35,459 nucleotides of DNA, from positions 1 to 35,459 of IMG/VR virus record IMGVR_UViG_3300025888_000007; one strand, 5' to 3'. The position numbers were made by a program, and so were the translations under genes. Numbering within the stretch: the stretch's first letter is position 1; each line of letters begins with the position of its first letter. The stretch is from a virus. Lineage: Duplodnaviria > Caudoviricetes. Positions 20,244 to 28,478 of this stretch are shown here, in pieces. The notes beneath the pieces are model-generated. The model searched no databases. It saw only the letters and a program-made list of their open reading frames with translations, and was not told the origin of the DNA.

Positions 20244-20498
20244 TCAGCCCTTTGCGGCTCTTTCCCTTTCGGCTTCTTCTAATTTGAAAATTCGCGTAAT
20301 GTCGTTTGCTCTTCGTTGAAATCGGTCAATCGAAGACTGAATGCGCGCGATTCTGTTGTCGATATCGGGGAAGTCTTTCTTCGTGGGATTGGGAGCATCG
20401 CAGCATTTCTTCAAGTCTTGTGTGCGACCCCGTGCTTCGTTTAGAAAAATCAAGGCGATGTTCAGATCGTCCAGTTCGGATTTGAGTGCTTCGTTCAT
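20244..20498 (-). CDS. Hypothetical helical protein
   Basis: Probable start MNEALK at 20498 after GAGGGAG. Confidence 0.62.
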   Translation of the reverse strand: MNEALKSELDDLNIALIFLNEARGRTQDLKKCCDAPNPTKKDFPDIDNRIARIQSSIDRFQRRANDITRIFKLEEAERERAAKG

Positions 20499-20632
20499 TT
20501 GTTCTCCCTCTCGAACGTTTTCCCGCACGTTTCAGCGGATTCAATGCATCGCTTGTCGCAATATCCCGTGCACTCACGGCAGCAGATACGCGGGCAAAGT
20601 GCTTCTTCTGATTTTCTGTGACAAAATTTCAT
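20495..20632 (-). CDS. Small Cys-rich protein (45 aa)
   Basis: Manual ORF MKFCHRK...CPRICCRECTGYCDKRC...CG with an AAGGAG RBS and ATGA overlaps. Confidence 0.6.
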   Translation of the reverse strand: MKFCHRKSEEALCPRICCRECTGYCDKRCIESAETCGKTFERENK

Positions 20633-20760
20633 TTCTCAGTTCTCCTTATGTGTTCTTCTTTGGCGTCCTGCTCTGCGCTGAACTGGTTCCAAGTGATACA
20701 GACAATGGCAGCCAGACCGAGAAAAACAAACATTCCTATTGCCAATCCTGCGTTATTCAT
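20629..20760 (-). CDS. Small membrane protein (43 aa)
   Basis: Manual ORF MNNAGLAIGMFVFLGLAAIVCITW... with ATGA overlaps. Confidence 0.55.
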   Translation of the reverse strand: MNNAGLAIGMFVFLGLAAIVCITWNQFSAEQDAKEEHIRRTEK

Positions 20761-21134
20761 AGCAGTGTACGGAGGTCAATAGGTTTGGAATTATTGTCAC
20801 TTACAAATAGTTCGCAAAGAGGCTTAATATTCGGGATGTCGCAAATCGGATATACAGGTGACATTTTGTCAAGTTCGCTTATATATGTGATGAGCTGTGT
20901 TTTTCTTATCCACGGCAACCCGATTGCGACGGCCAGCACCGCCGCCTTGCGTTCTGCAACATTCAAGATGATCGGTTCGATGTGGGGCGATGCAAGCCAA
21001 GCAAGGAAATCCCTGGTATCCTGATAAGATGACGTTTCTCTTCTCGCCAAAAACTCTTCGCGTTTTTCTCTTTGTCTCATGTCTGATTCGGCGGTTTTCA
21101 GTGCCAGCAACCATTCAAAATTTGTCTGTTTCAT
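20757..21134 (-). CDS. Hypothetical protein
   Basis: 125 aa with an AAGGAG RBS and ATGA overlap. Confidence 0.6.
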   Translation of the reverse strand: MKQTNFEWLLALKTAESDMRQREKREEFLARRETSSYQDTRDFLAWLASPHIEPIILNVAERKAAVLAVAIGLPWIRKTQLITYISELDKMSPVYPICDIPNIKPLCELFVSDNNSKPIDLRTLL

Positions 21135-21325
21135 CTTCTGCTCCTTCTGGGTTCGTATGCCTCGCCCTCAACATCGAATGGACTGACATCAAAAGTACCC
21201 ATGTGCCGATATTTCTTCCGGTCTTTCTTTTGGAGATAGTCATTGATTGCAAAGGTCAAAACGAATATGATCGTACAAAGTGTCGAGATAATACCGATTG
21301 CGGCAAATACGAAAATAACTCCCAT
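21131..21325 (-). CDS. Small membrane protein
   Basis: Hydrophobic N-terminal helix followed by basic residues; AGGAGG RBS. Confidence 0.65.
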   Translation of the reverse strand: MGVIFVFAAIGIISTLCTIIFVLTFAINDYLQKKDRKKYRHMGTFDVSPFDVEGEAYEPRRSRR

Positions 21326-21337
21326 TTCATCCTCCTT

Positions 21338-21514
21338 TCACATAAGCTGACTGACGTTCACTTTCAATCCATCAGCTATTTTGTATAGTATCTTGATTGT
21401 CGGAGACCGTTCCCCTCGTTCGTATCTCTGGATTGATCGTATCCCGATACCGGCTTTTTCGGCAAGTTCTTTCTGTGTCATTTTCTTAGATTTTCGAATC
21501 TGCTCTATTTTCAT
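21338..21514 (-). CDS. Cro-like XRE/HTH_3 regulator (58 aa)
   Basis: IRK-K-MTQ-ELAEKAGI----I-RYE-G-R-P-I--L-KIA--L-V. Start at 21514 after AAGGGGG; first gene of the early operon. Confidence 0.9.
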   Translation of the reverse strand: MKIEQIRKSKKMTQKELAEKAGIGIRSIQRYERGERSPTIKILYKIADGLKVNVSQLM

Positions 21515-21545
21515 TTTCTGCCCCCTTCCTTGTTTTGCTAATACA

Positions 21546-21574
21546 ACAATAGCACCGTTCGGGCGTATCTGCAA
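21546..21574 (-). promoter_or_regulatory. Leftward early sigma-A promoter
   Basis: TTGCAG-17 bp-TATTGT with an extended TG. Confidence 0.6.
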
Positions 21575-21677
21575 TGACCAAACGGGCAACAATATGCACA
21601 AAAATTCAATCAAAAACTTGTATAATATCACAAACAAATGGGCGTATGCGACTATTGACGCTATGACCAAACGGACA
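21552..21677. promoter_or_regulatory. Operator-like 14-bp sites, consensus TGNCC-N4-GGNCA
   Basis: TGACCAAACGGGCA (21575-21588), TGACCAAACGGACA (21664-21677) and degenerate CGCCCGAACGGTGC (21552-21565, minus strand). Two of them lie in promoter spacers. Confidence 0.65.
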
Positions 21678-21683
21678 TATAAT
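21655..21683 (+). promoter_or_regulatory. Rightward near-consensus sigma-A promoter
   Basis: TTGACG-17 bp-TATAAT upstream of AGGAGG. Confidence 0.85.
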
Positions 21684-21718
21684 AGAGATATAAAAAAATA
21701 AAACAGGAGGAAAAGGAA

Positions 21719-22192
21719 ATGAGAGAGATTTTATTTAGAGGATGGGATGCGGAAAAGAAAATAATGCTTAATTGTGATACCTTGTGTTTTTGTCAGGGCG
21801 GCATTAAGTATAGCGATGGTTGCACGACCGATAAGTGGGCATATCGGAACAAAGGATTTGACAACATAAGGCAAGCAACAATTATCTTAGAACAATTTAC
21901 CGGACTTTTAGACAAGAACGGCACAAAGATTTTTGAGGGTGATATCTGTAAGTCACAATCAGGAATGACCCATCTTGATGGGAGGCGTGCCAAAGGAGAA
22001 TCTATTGTAACGTATCAAATTGGTTTTTGCGACGGGCATTTTTCAGAATTTAAGCTGTCGGATAACAATTGGAAAAATTATAAGTCAGAAGATTTTGCCC
22101 CTAGCACGATGTATAAAAGCGTCGTTGGAAAATACTTTGAAGTTATCGGCAACATTCACGAAAATCCGGAACTTTTGGAGGTGGAAACATGA
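21719..22192 (+). CDS. yopX: YopX-family protein
   Basis: MREI-FR-WD, Q-TGL-DKNG-KIFEGDI, EVIGNIHENPELL. Confidence 0.93.
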   Translation: MREILFRGWDAEKKIMLNCDTLCFCQGGIKYSDGCTTDKWAYRNKGFDNIRQATIILEQFTGLLDKNGTKIFEGDICKSQSGMTHLDGRRAKGESIVTYQIGFCDGHFSEFKLSDNNWKNYKSEDFAPSTMYKSVVGKYFEVIGNIHENPELLEVET

Positions 22193-22359
22193 AATGGTTT
22201 CTTCGAATATCGTTTACTATTCTCACCGTGTTGGCTGTCTTGATTGCAATCACAACATGGCGCATCTTTAACCCGCCGCACGTATCGGATTTAGCTATTT
22301 CTGATCTAACAATCACCGAACCGGCAACGATGGATTGGGTTAGAACTACCCTGTGCTGA
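22189..22359 (+). CDS. Small membrane-anchored protein (56 aa)
   Basis: Manual ORF MKWFLRISFTILTVLAVLIAITTWRIFNPP... with a GGAGGTG RBS and ATGA overlap. Confidence 0.65.
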   Translation: MKWFLRISFTILTVLAVLIAITTWRIFNPPHVSDLAISDLTITEPATMDWVRTTLC

Positions 22360-22544: not shown

Positions 22545-23336
22545 CTATTTGATTGCTGATGCAGGGAACCAAGCGGTAACATACCCCGCGCCCTTTAGAT
22601 CCATCCCATAAGGATACATTGTTCCCGCTGAAATCTTGAGGCACTTTCCGGGCATTGACATAGCGATGTAAGGTACCCCCTTGCCGTCAGACGAAGTATT
22701 ACCCACGACAGCAACGGAATATGTGCCACCGACGACAATTCCCGTTGCCGGAGCTGAAGGAGTTGGCAGGATAACAGCAGGTGGTACTACTGGCGGTACT
22801 ACCGCTGCAGCATATGCAATGCCAAAGTACGCAAGATGTCCCTTTGCCTGTACAATCCCGATATCCTCAATATGCGCAAGAATCCACTTGCAGTCCTCAA
22901 GGTTGTCATGAAATCCCCACTCAAAATAGACGCAAGGTGCATTCGTCTTGGTGACCTCGTGAAATGTGTACGTAACGATCTTTACAATTCTTTCCGGGAA
23001 CGCTTTTCTGACTTCTGCCGCACAAATGTTTGCCAGTTTGGTAGATTTCAAAGATGCATTTGCCGCATTGAAGCACCCTATGTACGTGATGCCCTTTGTC
23101 AGCCTGTTGTTCGCGTTTGTGTGCGAGCAGGAGTGAATATCTGCACCCCATGCGTTAGATCGGTCTGTACGCTGTGTGAACGTGTCACCTGGTACGTTGC
23201 GCATGGTCTCGACACCGTGACGCTTGAGTTCGCGCTCCGATACATCATCTATTCTTTTATTGACAGCGGATTCGACGTATCCGGAAACCGCGCCAATATT
23301 ACCGTCTTGACTTGAGGCTGATAAAAATACTTTCAT
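22545..23336 (-). CDS. Endolysin, N-acetylmuramoyl-L-alanine amidase (Amidase_3) with Pro-rich linker and C-terminal binding domain
   Basis: R---SN-WGADIH---HTNA, E---T-AP-VY-E-GFHDN--D; lies downstream of the holin. Confidence 0.9.
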   Translation of the reverse strand: MKVFLSASSQDGNIGAVSGYVESAVNKRIDDVSERELKRHGVETMRNVPGDTFTQRTDRSNAWGADIHSCSHTNANNRLTKGITYIGCFNAANASLKSTKLANICAAEVRKAFPERIVKIVTYTFHEVTKTNAPCVYFEWGFHDNLEDCKWILAHIEDIGIVQAKGHLAYFGIAYAAAVVPPVVPPAVILPTPSAPATGIVVGGTYSVAVVGNTSSDGKGVPYIAMSMPGKCLKISAGTMYPYGMDLKGAGYVTAWFPASAIK

Positions 23337-23629
23337 GATGTTCCTGCTTTCTTCGCTTCGTCCGATTTGGCAAATGTGACCGTGTAGATACCCATTGCAG
23401 ACGAAGCAACAATAACCGCATTAACAATAGCTATGGCGTATGCGTCAATTGCCCCGCCTGAGAAATACGTTGCCGCAACCATGATAGCCAAAGCCACAAT
23501 ATAGGCAAACACCCGCGTGTCAAGCTTTGCCATAAACGAAACCGTCTTGAAAAACTGTACGATAAGAAGCACTACGGGAACCGCGCCCGCCATTGTTAAA
23601 AGACCCGCCCATGTTACTAATGCATCCAT
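23333..23629 (-). CDS. Holin
   Basis: 98 aa with three hydrophobic segments and a charged C-terminus, overlapping the endolysin start. Confidence 0.82.
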   Translation of the reverse strand: MDALVTWAGLLTMAGAVPVVLLIVQFFKTVSFMAKLDTRVFAYIVALAIMVAATYFSGGAIDAYAIAIVNAVIVASSAMGIYTVTFAKSDEAKKAGTS

Positions 23630-23641
23630 AATAATTTCCTC

Positions 23642-24106
23642 CTATAAAACATTTAATCTTGCGTAGACTCCGAAGAATGATTCGGCCCATACGTTGTAAA
23701 TCCACGCCGCGTCTCGTTCCGATCCATAGCGTCCAAGATAATATCTCTTTCCGCCTATTCTTATTTGTGGCGCCCACTTGCTTGTCGCTTTGTTCCAATA
23801 CACGCCCTTATAGATTGAAGTTCCTCGCGGAGACATCTGATTCTGCTGGTTTTGTCTTTTTGTTACGTGCCGAAGATTTTCGCGCCGGTTATCAAGGCGA
23901 TCTCCGGTTATATGGTCAACCTCTAAACCCCCATTCTTACCCATAATGACAGCGTGCATAAGCACTTTCTCCTGCTCCCCGCCGTCTAGGGCAATCGATC
24001 TAACGGCATACCCCTGATTGTAGTACCACTTGTGCTTAGACAATTCTTCAAAATCCCCGTCGTCTACAATCGTGACAAATCCTTGCGTCAGCTTAATTTC
24101 TCTCAT
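23642..24106 (-). CDS. HNH_3-AP2 homing endonuclease
   Basis: I-LTQG---IVD--D, MH--IMG, VDHI-GD-LDNRR-NLR-----QN, AP2 motif S-YKGV-W-----KW...YLG-Y-----AA--YN. Start MREIK at 24106. Confidence 0.92.
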   Translation of the reverse strand: MREIKLTQGFVTIVDDGDFEELSKHKWYYNQGYAVRSIALDGGEQEKVLMHAVIMGKNGGLEVDHITGDRLDNRRENLRHVTKRQNQQNQMSPRGTSIYKGVYWNKATSKWAPQIRIGGKRYYLGRYGSERDAAWIYNVWAESFFGVYARLNVL

Positions 24107-24251
24107 GTTCGCCCACCCACGCATCAATTTTATCTTTGTCAAAAAATAAAAGGCCGCCTATGCGAACGTGAGGCATTCCCTCTTGCATCCACTTGTAAAC
24201 CGTCACCCTGCTAACTCCAAATAGTTGTACAATATCTTTCATTCTCAACAT
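24093..24251 (-). CDS. AlpA/excisionase-like small HTH protein (52 aa)
   Basis: Manual ORF MLRMKDIVQLFGVSRVTVYKWMQEGMPHVRIGGLLFFDKDKIDAWVGEHERN with a GGAGGTG RBS; overlaps the HNH start. Confidence 0.8.
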   Translation of the reverse strand: MLRMKDIVQLFGVSRVTVYKWMQEGMPHVRIGGLLFFDKDKIDAWVGEHERN

Positions 24252-24270
24252 GTGTATCACCTCCACCAAC

Positions 24271-24299
24271 ATTGTACAACTATTCAGAGAATATTACAA
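24271..24299 (-). promoter_or_regulatory. Sigma-A promoter of the HTH-HNH cassette
   Basis: TTGTAA-17 bp-TACAAT just upstream of the RBS. Confidence 0.6.
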
Positions 24300-24329: not shown

Positions 24330-24839
24330 TTATTTATATAAAAATGAAACAACAGCAATAATAAGAATTACTCCGGCTGACACCCAGCCCCACATATCGC
24401 GACTGCCCTTGCTCGTTCCTGCCGACTCGTACTGTTTTTGCTCTACAACCTTAATTCGACTATCAAGCGTGTTCGTTACCTGTTGCAACTGCAAGGCAAG
24501 GGTTTCTGCTGTTTTAGCCATTGAAGCACGCAATGTCTCTGCGTTCTCTGCCATCTGATTGGCAAGAACTTCCGCCTGTTTTACGGCCATTTGATTTGCT
24601 ACTTTTACCGCTTCAACGTCAACAGCGCGAAGAGAATTAATTCGTTCTGATTCTGCGGCCCTCTCTCTTTGCGAGGCTTCTACTGCCAGCTGCAATTTTT
24701 GATTTAGAAACTCTTGCGACTGCCTGTGCAGTTCCTCTAGGTATTTTGTAGCATTGCCCACCAACTGCAACACATTTGCCGATGGATCCCGTCTGTCCTC
24801 TCCGTTCTCTGCCATTGGTTTAACCCGCCTTTCTTCCAT
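24330..24839 (-). CDS. Coiled-coil protein with C-terminal membrane anchor (lysis-associated, XhlA/holin-like)
   Basis: Heptad-rich body and C-terminal WGWVSAGVILIIAVVSFLY; lies between the tail and holin genes. Confidence 0.65.
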   Translation of the reverse strand: MEERRVKPMAENGEDRRDPSANVLQLVGNATKYLEELHRQSQEFLNQKLQLAVEASQRERAAESERINSLRAVDVEAVKVANQMAVKQAEVLANQMAENAETLRASMAKTAETLALQLQQVTNTLDSRIKVVEQKQYESAGTSKGSRDMWGWVSAGVILIIAVVSFLYK

Positions 24840-24861
24840 TTTTCACCTTCTTTTTTGCTAT

Positions 24862-24880
24862 AAAAAAGCGCCTAAGCGCT
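24862..24880 (-). terminator. Intrinsic terminator ahead of the lysis cassette
   Basis: AGCGC-TTAG-GCGCT-TTTTT. Confidence 0.7.
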
Positions 24881-24886
24881 GCGTGA

Positions 24887-24916
24887 TTACTTGGGGCCTG
24901 CTCGGATTCTGATCAT
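24887..24916 (-). CDS. 9-aa leader ORF MIRIRAGPK (candidate arrest peptide)
   Basis: AAGGAGG-6 nt-ATG ATC AGA ATC CGA GCA GGC CCC AAG TAA, immediately after the tail-protein stop. Confidence 0.6.
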   Translation of the reverse strand: MIRIRAGPK

Positions 24917-24929
24917 ATGTAGCCTCCTT

Positions 24930-27900
24930 TTACGACACGGCCAAGGAAATATCACATGCTTTGTTACCGATCTCGTTTAGTAATGTTGCATTACCACATT
25001 GCAGCACAATTCCCGTTTGTTTTTTTATCACTGTGAATAGTGCAAGTTCTCCCGATGTAAAATATCTGATATTAAATATTGATCCTTCTATTAGCGTGAC
25101 TGTTTTTCCCGATGCTCCAGCGACGGGTATTTCGCTAGATTGAGCGGTTCCAGATGATGTACTACTGAAAATTAATGAACCGTTAATTGTTGGGGGGCAA
25201 GCGATCTCGTCAGCACGTAAGCCGTTCAGTGTACGTGCATCTGTGTGGGCTGCTCTGGAAATTAGCGTCAGGTCCGAAGAGCTTAAGGTTCCACTTCGGT
25301 TAACATCCATTTTTGGGTACAGCGCTAACCCTGCGGCCTGTTCTGAGGGGTGCAGTACATAATAGGCTACAAGATCCAGATCCGCCTCATCAACGTACCC
25401 ATCTTCATTCACGTCATAAATGCTCGTGACAAGGATTCCGTTTTTGACATAAATTTGAGGACGTCCATCAATTGATAGCTCAAAAGGCTTTGCCGCAGAG
25501 ATTTCAACCGTGATCGTTTTCCCTCCGATAACTGCGGTTTCTAGTATTTTCGAATTGTCTAGATCAAAATAGGTTCCCCCATCTACACTTTGCATTTTTC
25601 CGGTGGTGACATTGTTTGCCGTCAGCAAGGAAGTGATGATGTGTCCCCCGCTGATAATCGTCGATCCCATTGCGGCGATCTCTGCCAGCGTATATGCGTT
25701 CGCCCAATCAGCCGCAGTATAGGCACCCGTGAGCCTCGTGACCGTGCATTTTACTATGTCGGTTACGTCAACCGGCACTTGCTGTTTCTGCCAGACATCC
25801 CCGATGTAGTAAGGCGGTGCAGGCTGCGTATAAAACGTCTTGTTCTTTGCGGCTGCCACTGTTGCTGCATTTGTTGCGGCAGTTTGCGCTGTAGCCGCAT
25901 TAGTGGTGGCTGTATTCGCTTGAGTCTGTGCAGTTGCCGCATTCGTTACTCCTGTGTTTGCAGTGGTCTGTGCTGTGTCTGCATCTGTTTGAGCGGCCGC
26001 TGCGGCTAGACGCGCGACTTCAGCGGCGGATGCTGCCTCAGATGGGTCGTACCCGGAAGCGTAAGTAGATGATCCACTGATCGATACTCTTGATGCATTA
26101 ACTACTCCTGCATTAATCCAGTCTGCATTTATGCCGATAGTATTCAGGACCCTTGCAAGGATGTTGCCGGTTGCGTCGTAACCAAGCCATGTAACGCCTC
26201 CGTCTGCGGAGTATGTGAATGTTGTGGCTGTCTGCCGCCAAATAAAGATACTGTCTGCCCGCAAAGGATGATCATGCTGATAGTAAATAACAGACCCGTC
26301 CGGCAGTGTTTCGGATGACGGGTAAAGCCCTGTTGATTGCGCGGAAAACTCGTTCAGTTGAAGCATTGCCAGCTGGTACGTAGTTAATTTTTGAACCGCG
26401 ATTTGTTCTTGCTGCGCAATAGCCGATAGCTGTTTTTCGGCAGCCGGTTTATACTTCGCCAGAGCAACCGCCCTGCCCTCTGCCGACAAAATGGAATGAC
26501 CGCGATATGAATAATTATGTGTCATGATAATCGTGTTGATTGATGTCGTATCCGGTAACACAACCGTAATACAGTCGGTTGCCAGAAAAGACGGATCGCC
26601 CTGCATATCACAATCGAAAATGTAATAGCTGGACGCCCCGATGTCCGCCCATATCCCGTCAAGTATTGCCTGCACGGGTTGACCCAACATAAACGGATTC
26701 TCCGCAAGAGATAAGCAGTAATCGTTTGTTCCGGCCCTATACGTTGTCTGGACATTATTGGAGTCCACCGCAACATATTCGACACCGGTAAGACTGATCT
26801 GTACGGGATCGACTTTCAAGACATCTCGAAGTGCAGGCGTGATTGTCACAGTTGGCGTTGTGCCATACCAGACAAACTCCAAAACCCCCGCGCGAGAGAA
26901 CCTTGCTACCTTGCCGCAGAGCATAGCCAAATATCCGATCGCATCCCTGCAAGTCATTCTTGAACTTTCGGGAATCCCTGCGAGTGTGATTGTACTGTTT
27001 GTGCCGGATAATCCGGTCGTTGTAATGCTACACGCTAGGCAAATGTCGCTAAGAGCAGAACTAATCGAACAGGGGAACGTGACCCCCGCTAAGTAGAACG
27101 GGCGCTCCGTTAATACCATGCGGTCGTATGCCTTGATCGGTATTGTCTTTATTCCGCGAGGAGCCTCGACAATAATAAAATAGCCAAGGTTGACCCATTC
27201 ACGGGAAGCAGGATAATCATCAGATGGCGTGCTTGTCAGGAACGTCATGGGCACTTCTGTTGCGGCAGACGATGCTACCTTTGTAAACACAAGTGCGGCT
27301 GTTGTTGGTGTAACAAGCTGATAGACTACTTCTGCGCCCGTCGTCAATGCTCCTGTTGTGGAGAGGTATGGCGTTGTGATGGATTCGCCGTTGTACGAAG
27401 CTATCCTCGCGTTCCTTTTCTCTAATACTCCGTTATGGCTTACCCTGTCAAAAACTACTTTGTCTAATGCTGTACCTATTCCGCGCAGTGCATCGGAAAG
27501 AGTAAACTCATAGATACCATCAGTAGAAGTGTACTTGTAAGTTCCTGCGGCAAGGTTGGAAGTGATGGGACTAGGGTATGTAACGGAAGGAGAATTTTGC
27601 GTGTAAGTGATGATGTCTGTAGTCATTTGAGCAGTAGTGTTAAACCATGAATTAGGGTACTGTTCCATCATGGTATCCATTTGTGCGGCAGTAGGTTCAT
27701 TTCCTGCACCAAATGTCGCAGTAAGATCAATTAGACTAATGTTTTTTGCTTTCACAACCTTGTCAAAGGCAGTTGCGGCATCTGCGTATTCGCTCCTAAA
27801 GTAAAACACATTAGATGCAGTCGCAGGAATAACTATTCCCGACATGTCGTACCAAGTGTTTGCAGTTGGTCCATACACAAGTCTCGAATATTGGTAGTCA

Positions 27901-28478
27901 TATAACAATGCTATATTTATACAAGCAGAATCAGTAACCAGTATTTTGGCACTACAGTAATATTTATGTCCGATTGTTCCTGCGGGCACAAGTTGATATG
28001 CATCTTTTGCTAAACCATCGCCATTTCCGGTTAATATAAGGGTATTATCACTTACACTTCCTGCTGCATTCTCAATTCCCCATATTCCCCGCCAAGCATC
28101 CGGTGGTACATCACTAAAATTACCATTTGTAATAAGGTTTGTCGCCCAAACGCTTTGTGCCTGACTGCTCAATCCATCTTTAGCGTAGTAGTCAACGTCT
28201 AGCATTAATCCCACCTGATCCAATAACGCGCTGTTCTGAAGAGCAACACCATCCAGCTCCCCGGCGAGATTCAACAATGTAAGATTCAATTCCGACATGA
28301 CTGTTGTTCCGATGGATATCTCTCTCCCGGAGGCCGTTGATTCGGAATATTTCATCGACCCCAAAAGAATGTTGTCATCGTCCAGTACGGTATTCGGGGA
28401 TCCGTAAATCGTGACAGATGCAGCATAGTCTCTCGCTATTGTCGGATCGGCTAAGATTGCCAAATATCCAGCTGTCAT
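24930..28478 (-). CDS. Large tail tip/adhesin protein (baseplate hub, inserted CBM-like module, Ala/Thr coiled coil, dockerin)
   Basis: 1182 aa after the distal-tail gene. Hub motifs EW--LG-F, I-AYD-M, TCR-AIGY-A; SADGG-TW, IGINADWINAG; PPY-IGD-W; two DVN-DG-type loops near the C-terminus. Confidence 0.85.
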   Translation of the reverse strand: MTAGYLAILADPTIARDYAASVTIYGSPNTVLDDDNILLGSMKYSESTASGREISIGTTVMSELNLTLLNLAGELDGVALQNSALLDQVGLMLDVDYYAKDGLSSQAQSVWATNLITNGNFSDVPPDAWRGIWGIENAAGSVSDNTLILTGNGDGLAKDAYQLVPAGTIGHKYYCSAKILVTDSACINIALLYDYQYSRLVYGPTANTWYDMSGIVIPATASNVFYFRSEYADAATAFDKVVKAKNISLIDLTATFGAGNEPTAAQMDTMMEQYPNSWFNTTAQMTTDIITYTQNSPSVTYPSPITSNLAAGTYKYTSTDGIYEFTLSDALRGIGTALDKVVFDRVSHNGVLEKRNARIASYNGESITTPYLSTTGALTTGAEVVYQLVTPTTAALVFTKVASSAATEVPMTFLTSTPSDDYPASREWVNLGYFIIVEAPRGIKTIPIKAYDRMVLTERPFYLAGVTFPCSISSALSDICLACSITTTGLSGTNSTITLAGIPESSRMTCRDAIGYLAMLCGKVARFSRAGVLEFVWYGTTPTVTITPALRDVLKVDPVQISLTGVEYVAVDSNNVQTTYRAGTNDYCLSLAENPFMLGQPVQAILDGIWADIGASSYYIFDCDMQGDPSFLATDCITVVLPDTTSINTIIMTHNYSYRGHSILSAEGRAVALAKYKPAAEKQLSAIAQQEQIAVQKLTTYQLAMLQLNEFSAQSTGLYPSSETLPDGSVIYYQHDHPLRADSIFIWRQTATTFTYSADGGVTWLGYDATGNILARVLNTIGINADWINAGVVNASRVSISGSSTYASGYDPSEAASAAEVARLAAAAAQTDADTAQTTANTGVTNAATAQTQANTATTNAATAQTAATNAATVAAAKNKTFYTQPAPPYYIGDVWQKQQVPVDVTDIVKCTVTRLTGAYTAADWANAYTLAEIAAMGSTIISGGHIITSLLTANNVTTGKMQSVDGGTYFDLDNSKILETAVIGGKTITVEISAAKPFELSIDGRPQIYVKNGILVTSIYDVNEDGYVDEADLDLVAYYVLHPSEQAAGLALYPKMDVNRSGTLSSSDLTLISRAAHTDARTLNGLRADEIACPPTINGSLIFSSTSSGTAQSSEIPVAGASGKTVTLIEGSIFNIRYFTSGELALFTVIKKQTGIVLQCGNATLLNEIGNKACDISLAVS

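Follow-up and report, generated by a model that had tools for sequence, protein, structure and literature searches.

Between the last tail gene and the lysis genes of a 35,459-base tailed-phage contig (IMG/VR record IMGVR_UViG_3300025888_000007, called the window below in its full length), whose minus strand carries the structural and lysis genes, lies a nine-residue open reading frame (ORF) with its own ribosome-binding site (RBS), followed directly by a predicted intrinsic terminator. From comparison with related loci we conclude that this micro-ORF and its terminator constitute a real and widespread phage element, apparently undescribed, with a shared layout, constrained amino acids and a fixed position ahead of unrelated lysis cassettes. 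An earlier note on this DNA had described AAGGAGG, the peptide MIRIRAGPK, a 6-nucleotide (nt) gap, a terminator and the next RBS behind the tail-gene stop, and had read them as a translation-sensing lysis attenuator built on the arrest motif RAGP; all of these parts are present, on the minus strand.

Taken singly, the parts in the window are weak. The hairpin has a folding energy of -7.9 kcal/mol (z score 0.26 against shuffles), and 8 terminator-like sites occur within 22-28 kb against 5.4 +/- 2.2 expected. The micro-ORF, with a 6-nt spacer between RBS and ATG (ATG at 24916, minus strand), is the shortest coding-strand ORF with a strong RBS in the window. RBS-led ORFs of at most 15 amino acids (aa) containing I-R-x-x-P appeared in 0 of 400 crude window shuffles, a weak result because the motif was chosen post hoc. 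Chance is strongly disfavoured as the origin because of the conservation among relatives. A gathering-score search of Rfam with 16 family loci gave no matches.

Relatives were sought in IMG/VR. The exact peptide matched only a copy of the window phage, whereas a scan with a preselected peptide (AGGAGG, ATG, 0 to 24 nt, then I[R/S]AGP) yielded 72 loci. The in-frame IRAGP hits, 20 in number with one window-phage copy and several near-identical sequences among them, were all ORFs of 7-30 aa, and none began a protein longer than 30 aa, whereas seven of the eight in-frame ISAGP controls exceeded 60 aa. Nearly all 20 loci had the hairpin and T-run and lay upstream of holin-like genes. Raw IRAGP counts are not enriched in frame (for Arg, 20 in frame and 37 out), the signal being ORF length and context. 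These lengths bear on the explanation that the micro-ORF is all that is left of a longer gene after a deletion. Recombination is frequent at tail-to-lysis junctions, and a strong RBS and ATG directly behind the tail gene would suit such a remnant; the contrast with the ISAGP controls argues against it, as do the longer ORFs of the family, which are terminator read-throughs in varying frames or fusions with the next gene. We regard this explanation as largely refuted, and origin of the micro-ORF by chance or as a deletion remnant as very unlikely.

In a scan blind to the peptide, terminators were chosen by their hairpin nucleotides alone, which gave 121 loci of an estimated 1,300 stretches, 113 of them distinct. 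An RBS-led start stood in the motif frame, where the hairpin arm supplies [R/G]-P, in 53 of the 113, against 3 and 7 in the other two frames. Two codons earlier, Arg was found in 52 of these 53, and eight additional loci had the Arg with an RBS or start that escaped the filter. Four hits reading M-[T/S]-G-P, which are coding sequence (a T4-like capsid motif), served as controls. When four residues were left free behind M-[E/Q]-I and the 3' arm was fixed, 34 of 120 hits belonged to the family (RARP 26, RAGP 3, RDRP 3, RARQ 1, RART 1). With two residues free after M-E-I-[R/S]-A (108 distinct sequences), all 42 terminator-bearing hits read R-A-[R/G]-P, and the remaining 66, lacking a terminator, were divided between Arg (37) and Ser (29). 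All 29 terminator-bearing sequences among the 92 hits of a scan with two codons before Ile had Arg.

Pooling of the pattern-biased scans gave 138 distinct sequences, two of them probably chance: 89 with RARP, 38 with RAGP, 4 with RDGP and the others single. The family consensus is M-x(1-2)-I-R-[A/D/E/G]-[R/G/D/E]-P, usually with RARP or RAGP. The emphasis of the earlier note on RAGP is not supported for the family as a whole, whose motif is I-R-x-x-P, with RARP as its commonest form. The members are related, which inflates the counts of independent events, and the pattern rather than any p value carries weight.

Among the 49 members with an ATG five codons upstream, entropy amounts to 1.09-1.45 bits at third codon positions and 0-0.59 at first and second positions, and Ile and Arg are each invariant (49/49). 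The Arg codons of 59 members are AGA (40), AGG (11), CGT (4), CGA (3) and CGC (1), with no Ser codon. The distance from start to hairpin varies by whole codons, and the frame is kept before Pro and lost beyond it (loops of 4-8 nt). The residue after Arg is A, D, E or G, either Ala or one of its permissive small substitutes (G, S, D, P, E); the third motif residue is Gly in the window, of the Gly/Pro type in 43 of the 138 pooled sequences, and Arg in the RARP majority. Most members have only 2-4 residues before the Arg. A stop directly after Pro occurs in 30 of 68 family members and in 7 of 45 control terminators (p 0.002). The micro-ORF, with its own RBS, is thus conserved as amino acids, and its translation is predicted. 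Synonymous-only change of this kind would not be expected in the remnant of a deleted gene, an origin that it makes very unlikely.

Selection might instead act on the terminator, or on an RNA or DNA site, alone, in which case the peptide would be a side effect of nucleotide conservation in a stretch that moves along with the lysis module. The final two motif codons are hairpin arm in most members, the sequences are related and most holin loci lack the element, as this would lead one to expect. It would not predict the three-base periodicity 5' of the hairpin, the use of five Arg codons without Ser, or the whole-codon length changes, and no comparable codon pattern is seen in 45 control terminators that share the hairpin. 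Moreover, Pro is retained where the hairpin differs: L240 has RADP and a hairpin that falls in a different frame, L814 has RAEP and a stem with compensating changes, L815 has RGRP, and in the window's subfamily G-P is not part of the hairpin. We consider this explanation highly improbable.

The subfamily of the window includes L783 (MIRIRDGPE), L780 (MIRIRDGPN) and L703 (MIKIRDGPSA), which retain its RBS and hairpin; the residue after Pro is variable and both flanks are divergent. The terminator stem is identical in all four members, with a single loop change. The G-P codons of the subfamily lie outside the hairpin; G-P was fixed by the search pattern, however. In each of the three relatives the element stands between a tail protein and a coiled-coil membrane gene, behind which come a holin (phrog_13712 in the scanned loci) and a gene resembling an endolysin. 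L211, with MIRIRERP on the common hairpin, bridges the window form and the majority form. Homologous RBS-led micro-ORFs, conserved as amino acids and in fixed register with a terminator, were thus found at tail-to-lysis junctions, where the earlier note had proposed to look for them; neither a lack of homologues, nor conservation confined to nucleotides, nor a deletion remnant was found.

Across the family the upstream neighbours are varied, mostly tail or tail-fibre genes, and the genes that follow it fall into several unrelated families (phrog_199 holin, 937 hemolysin, 1863, 4105, 1009, 918 and 13712). The element keeps its tail-to-lysis position while the flanking genes are exchanged. Terminator-bearing members in named genomes are from Lachnospiraceae, namely Blautia, Anaerostipes, Mediterraneibacter and Bariatricus. 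Cultured carriers are Ruminococcus phage phiRgPS_6 (MT980839), Dorea phage DO134P1 (OP172779) and Blautia phage Montmirail (ON453898), in all of which the element is unannotated; six further R. gnavus phages match by BLAST. Among cultured phages, the window's own element had nothing but chance hits in BLAST. An Anaerostipes phage match from BLAST was examined and is not the element. In a sample of 400 genomes of the class, many of them incomplete, no new lysis-linked member was found among the 30 loci read and the listed matches.

Some members deviate from the common arrangement. In L453 the motif is fused onto the end of the upstream ORF. A small non-holin gene comes first after the element in L587, L610, L565, L677 and L814, and one extra gene before the lysis cassette is therefore possible. 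In L439-L442, where an extra gene separates the tail and lysis genes, a second, stronger terminator lies directly 5' of the element's RBS. Short perfect TTGCG...CGCAA palindromes, possibly a binding site for a late regulator, lie just upstream of an RBS, either the micro-ORF's own or that of the first lysis gene, in L005, L007, L018, L064, L071 and L122. Another recurring pre-holin terminator type (L485, L487, L493 and L500) shares bases 5' of the stem, and no micro-ORF was seen with it. Similar ORFs also occur outside phage lysis: in genomes of Blautia and Ruminococcus, RBS-led M-x-I-R-D-G-P micro-ORFs precede a gene for a secreted surface protein (L576, L616), and ORFs of 15-22 aa beginning MHRIRDSP precede a lipoprotein-like gene in two genomes and two viral contigs (L853, L855, L671, L752). 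An identical RBS-led MKYIRDEP start is present in 5 of 401 genomes; in L860 it opens an ORF of 10 aa upstream of a gene of 107 aa, on what is probably a mobile element.

The hairpin is predicted to terminate transcription, and it is likely, judging from these sequences, that host ribosomes set the amount of lysis-gene transcription through the micro-gene. More specifically, we hold with about even confidence that the element is a ribosome-gated transcription stop, at which read-through into the lysis genes needs a ribosome on the hairpin. A pause of RNA polymerase at the U-tract, of the NusG type known from vmlR and msrD, would give a ribosome time to load; the pause motif TTNTTT is present in 126 of 138 members, although the search patterns preselected T-rich tails and any T6 run matches it. 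If a ribosome loaded on the micro-gene covered the hairpin in time, the lysis genes would be read through. In 127 of 138 members the motif runs into the predicted hairpin, whereas in the window's subfamily the hairpin closely follows the stop. Relative to the would-be P-site codon the hairpin begins at -1 nt in those 127, and at +6, +18 or +31 in five, the window being +18, a register partly built into the search patterns. In SecM, the P site of the stalled ribosome is occupied by Gly and its A site by Pro (PMC10951299). I-R-x-x-P would slow the ribosome in the same register, so that its third residue and its Pro fill the P and A sites, respectively; in the window the P site would hold the Gly codon (24898-24896, minus strand). 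In the majority form, where the hairpin begins within the motif codons, initiation and a few codons of elongation would suffice to block it, and a stall would hold read-through open. In the window form the hairpin lies just outside a ribosome stalled at Gly (2-3 nt free), so that a stall would permit termination and a run through to the stop codon would block the hairpin. The sensed variable would most likely be general translation capacity, that is, loading or re-initiation after the tail gene, rather than a named metabolite.

A stalling step is likely in itself, yet separable from the ribosome gating. It is the core of a more specific proposal, which we put forward only tentatively, that Clostridia phages tie lysis-gene transcription to the translation state of the host by a minimal arrest peptide of 6-8 residues without a tunnel-spanning segment. 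If true, this would be a new control of lysis timing in gut phages, possibly responsive to starvation or to antibiotics that target ribosomes, and the shortest ligand-free peptide to stall in the SecM register. As regards the translation-sensing attenuator of the earlier note, it is partly supported: the conserved layout of micro-ORF and terminator stands, and the commonest motif, RARP, and the lack of an N-terminal segment depart from the rules of RAPP-type arrest.

Several observations weigh against these proposals. A stall cannot act in one direction in both forms, because their hairpin geometries differ and would give opposite outputs. A ribosome covers about 15 nt past its P-site base and a polymerase about 14 nt; with these footprints a stall would not be able to decide termination in the majority geometry, because the ribosome could reach the stall site only after the polymerase has cleared the U-tract. 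For L254, whose element is identical to that of Montmirail, RNA contigs bridge the terminator in three of four runs. One contig, from one run, halts at the 3' arm of the terminator; contigs cannot show ends or levels, and these RNA data were given no weight. Not every locus has the complete element. A strict filter finds it in 8 of 74 distinct holin-anchored loci and visual inspection in 10, the query itself favouring carriers, and L377, L547, L565 and L624 have the micro-ORF without a callable terminator. Pro is lost in the two sequences RARQ and RART among 34 family hits. Among metagenome relatives of the window's downstream gene, of which 25 were returned, 17 inspected and 8 short or weak ones left aside, 15 of the 17 lack the element and the other two are window-phage copies; in IMG/VR the nearest relatives of this gene (L003, L004) also lack it. 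Arrest itself is in question as well. Mutagenesis of ApdA and ApdP found that Arg in the third motif place abolishes arrest (PMC12992588), and RARP, the commonest motif of the family, has this very residue, in a codon that is also hairpin arm. The same study describes the RAPP-like core as insufficient without an N-terminal tunnel segment (PMC12992588), and when RAPP-like sequences were tried in E. coli and B. subtilis, most of them failed to stall.

A stalled ribosome might alternatively act after transcription, as a roadblock against 5'-to-3' decay or as insulation from ribosome traffic on the tail gene, with the terminator as an independent fixed dimmer. Such a role would be compatible with both geometries and with terminator-less members, and the distance from motif to next start is confined to 38-69 nt (n = 56). 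In B. subtilis, mRNA downstream of a stalled ribosome is stabilised (PMC3997798), and Rae1 cleaves behind stalled ribosomes (10.64898/2026.10.09.757949). Against it, a strong RBS alone can stabilise mRNA, which would make the peptide superfluous (PMC3997798), and the one-nucleotide register between hairpin and motif in 127 of 138 members, partly pattern-imposed, is left unexplained. We judge the roadblock to be unlikely, if a serious competitor to ribosome gating. In trans, the micro-gene could act late in infection by draining ribosomes or peptidyl-tRNA, for which the lambda bar-like minigene is the model, or through a peptide that binds a target. A strong RBS on an abundant late transcript, conservation at the amino-acid level and a stop immediately after Pro in 73 of 138 members are in keeping with this; the remaining 65, however, continue for 1 to more than 30 unrelated residues past Pro, some into the next gene, and the constant position at the lysis junction suggests a role in cis. 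Action in trans therefore seems improbable. Finally, the stalled ribosome could unmask the RBS of the first lysis gene, as in the translational control by SecM. The motif and register match those of SecM, and the U-tract of the window can pair with an A-rich stretch preceding the next RBS, but a stalled ribosome makes no difference to the predicted accessibility of the RBS (0.57 with it, 0.59 without; n = 56, p 0.46), which leaves this translational control quite improbable.

The coordinates of the element and the neighbouring genes in the window are given in Table 1. The earlier note had called the gene behind the element the first of the lysis module. Its position and shape (coiled coil, C-terminal membrane segment) fit, and we infer a lysis role from them; the protein has no PHROG or curated Pfam match, just a sub-threshold Pfam hit, and none of its 139 homologues is tellingly named. 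The internal promoter that, according to the note, could also feed the holin and endolysin is not above chance: it matches at 9 of 12 positions, in a region with 8 promoter matches against 9.5 expected. Helix-turn-helix (HTH) and HNH genes (window 23642-24299) split the lysis cassette, separating the 169-aa gene from the holin; this insert is absent from the three subfamily relatives. A block of plus-strand ORFs (window 20341-22359, including phrog_98 at 21719-22192) converges on the lysis cassette, the rest of the genome being on the minus strand.

Table 1. Features of the element and its surroundings in the window.
Feature	Position	Strand	Basis or remark
Tail protein stop TAA	24932-24930	-	directly 5' of the micro-ORF RBS
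Shine-Dalgarno sequence AAGGAGG	24923..24929	-	abuts tail-gene stop; AGGAGG invariant in 4/4 subfamily members, upstream flank divergent
Micro-ORF MIRIRAGPK-stop	24887..24916	-	ORF call; relatives MIRIRDGPE, MIRIRDGPN, MIKIRDGPSA, MIRIRERP
I-R-A-G-P codons, conserved I-R-x-x-P core	24893..24907	-	family codon analysis
6-nt spacer, micro-ORF stop to hairpin	24881..24886	-	12 nt shorter in this region in relative L703
Weak predicted intrinsic terminator	24862..24880	-	5-bp stem, 4-nt loop (24880-24867), T5 (24866-24862)
RBS of first downstream gene	24844..24852	-	next ATG at 24839
Tail protein, 1182 aa, final structural gene	24930..28478	-	phrog_6616 tail protein, E 1e-69
169-aa coiled-coil protein, C-terminal hydrophobic segment	24330..24839	-	inferred first lysis-cassette gene (XhlA-like slot)
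Weak sigma70-like promoter match	24271..24299	-	9 of 12; possibly serves HTH-HNH insert; not above chance
Small HTH/excisionase-like gene, cassette insert	24093..24272	-	phrog_66, E 8e-9
HNH endonuclease, cassette insert	23642..24142	-	phrog_99, E 9e-34
Holin, weak match	23333..23629	-	phrog_1299, E 7.5e-4
Endolysin, Amidase_3	22545..23336	-	phrog_435; PF01520, E 1.6e-11

The timing of phage lysis is usually attributed to late promoters, antiterminator proteins and holin/antiholin ratios. A conserved micro-gene and terminator before many unrelated lysis cassettes would point to an unrecognised layer that reads host ribosomes. The element is common in Lachnospiraceae prophages, and the cultured phages of Ruminococcus gnavus, Blautia and Dorea make it testable now. 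It bears on ribosome-dependent attenuation in Bacillota, whose transcription runs largely uncoupled from translation, and if antibiotics or starvation shift read-through, lysis of gut prophages after induction would change.

The earlier note knew of no lysis control of this kind, and a literature search on RAGP/IRAGP, arrest peptides, phage holin and lysis leaders and R. gnavus phage terminators, with most subscription papers outside its scope, likewise found no description. Surveys of small phage proteins may list longer read-through forms without an attenuator interpretation. The word 'phage' does not occur in the main texts of PMC12992588, PMC10987492 and the LudP preprint, and lysis genes are not among the downstream gene classes that the first of these names (PMC12992588).

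The phage peptides share with SecM, ApcA, ApdA, ApdP and YwcI an invariant Arg, a small second residue, Pro in the fourth place and a location in an upstream ORF of a co-oriented gene; like SecM they have Ile before Arg, and RAGP, RDGP and RADP occur in the RAPP-like and phage sets alike. RDGP and RADP are indeed listed among RAPP-like motifs (PMC10987492), and ApdA and ApdP tolerate small substitutes at the Ala position, which covers the family's D, E and G (PMC12992588). The known proteins differ in being about 100-170 aa long, mostly secreted or membrane-bound and dependent on an N-terminal tunnel segment, and SecM acts on a downstream RBS; the phage peptides are 6-9 residues long, lack a targeting signal, mostly carry Arg as the third motif residue and sit on a terminator. 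No targeting signal or membrane segment that could exert an arrest-releasing pull was found in the nine-residue window peptide. The element is not classed with the RAPP-family arrest peptides because the required N-terminal segment is absent. The earlier note had cautioned that SecM needs upstream residues; the core alone is reported as insufficient (PMC12992588), and the family has 2-4 residues before Arg. Its idea of EF-P sensing is weakened, as RAPP-type arrest is reported to be refractory to EF-P. The element offers a natural test of the rule that R-x-x-P cores need an upstream tunnel segment to stall.

Among systems that couple lysis to translation, the RNA phages MS2 and fr make lysis-gene expression dependent on ribosomes completing the upstream structural gene; this coupling is purely translational, with no micro-ORF, terminator or conserved peptide motif (PMC12548453). 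The closer parallels are attenuators of Bacillota. In vmlR of Bacillus subtilis, NusG-dependent pausing gives the ribosome on a tiny upstream ORF time to decide termination (PMC9226507); the combination of a tiny upstream ORF with a termination decision is shared, whereas vmlR responds to antibiotics, works through antiterminator and anti-antiterminator hairpins and is transcribed from a promoter of its own, features not seen in the phage element. MsrDL, which lies within an operon, pairs a leader of six codons with a terminator of -7.9 kcal/mol, whose hairpin the stalled ribosome blocks (10.1101/2021.11.29.470318). Here the likeness extends to the weak terminator directly behind a tiny leader within an operon, the lack of an alternative structure and the Bacillota host. 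Stalling on MsrDL requires a bound macrolide, and the gene under its control confers resistance, whereas the phage element has no known ligand, an I-R-x-x-P peptide, a hairpin that mostly overlaps the ORF, and lysis genes as its targets. The phage element probably functions in the manner of a ribosome-mediated attenuator whose motif resembles that of SecM.

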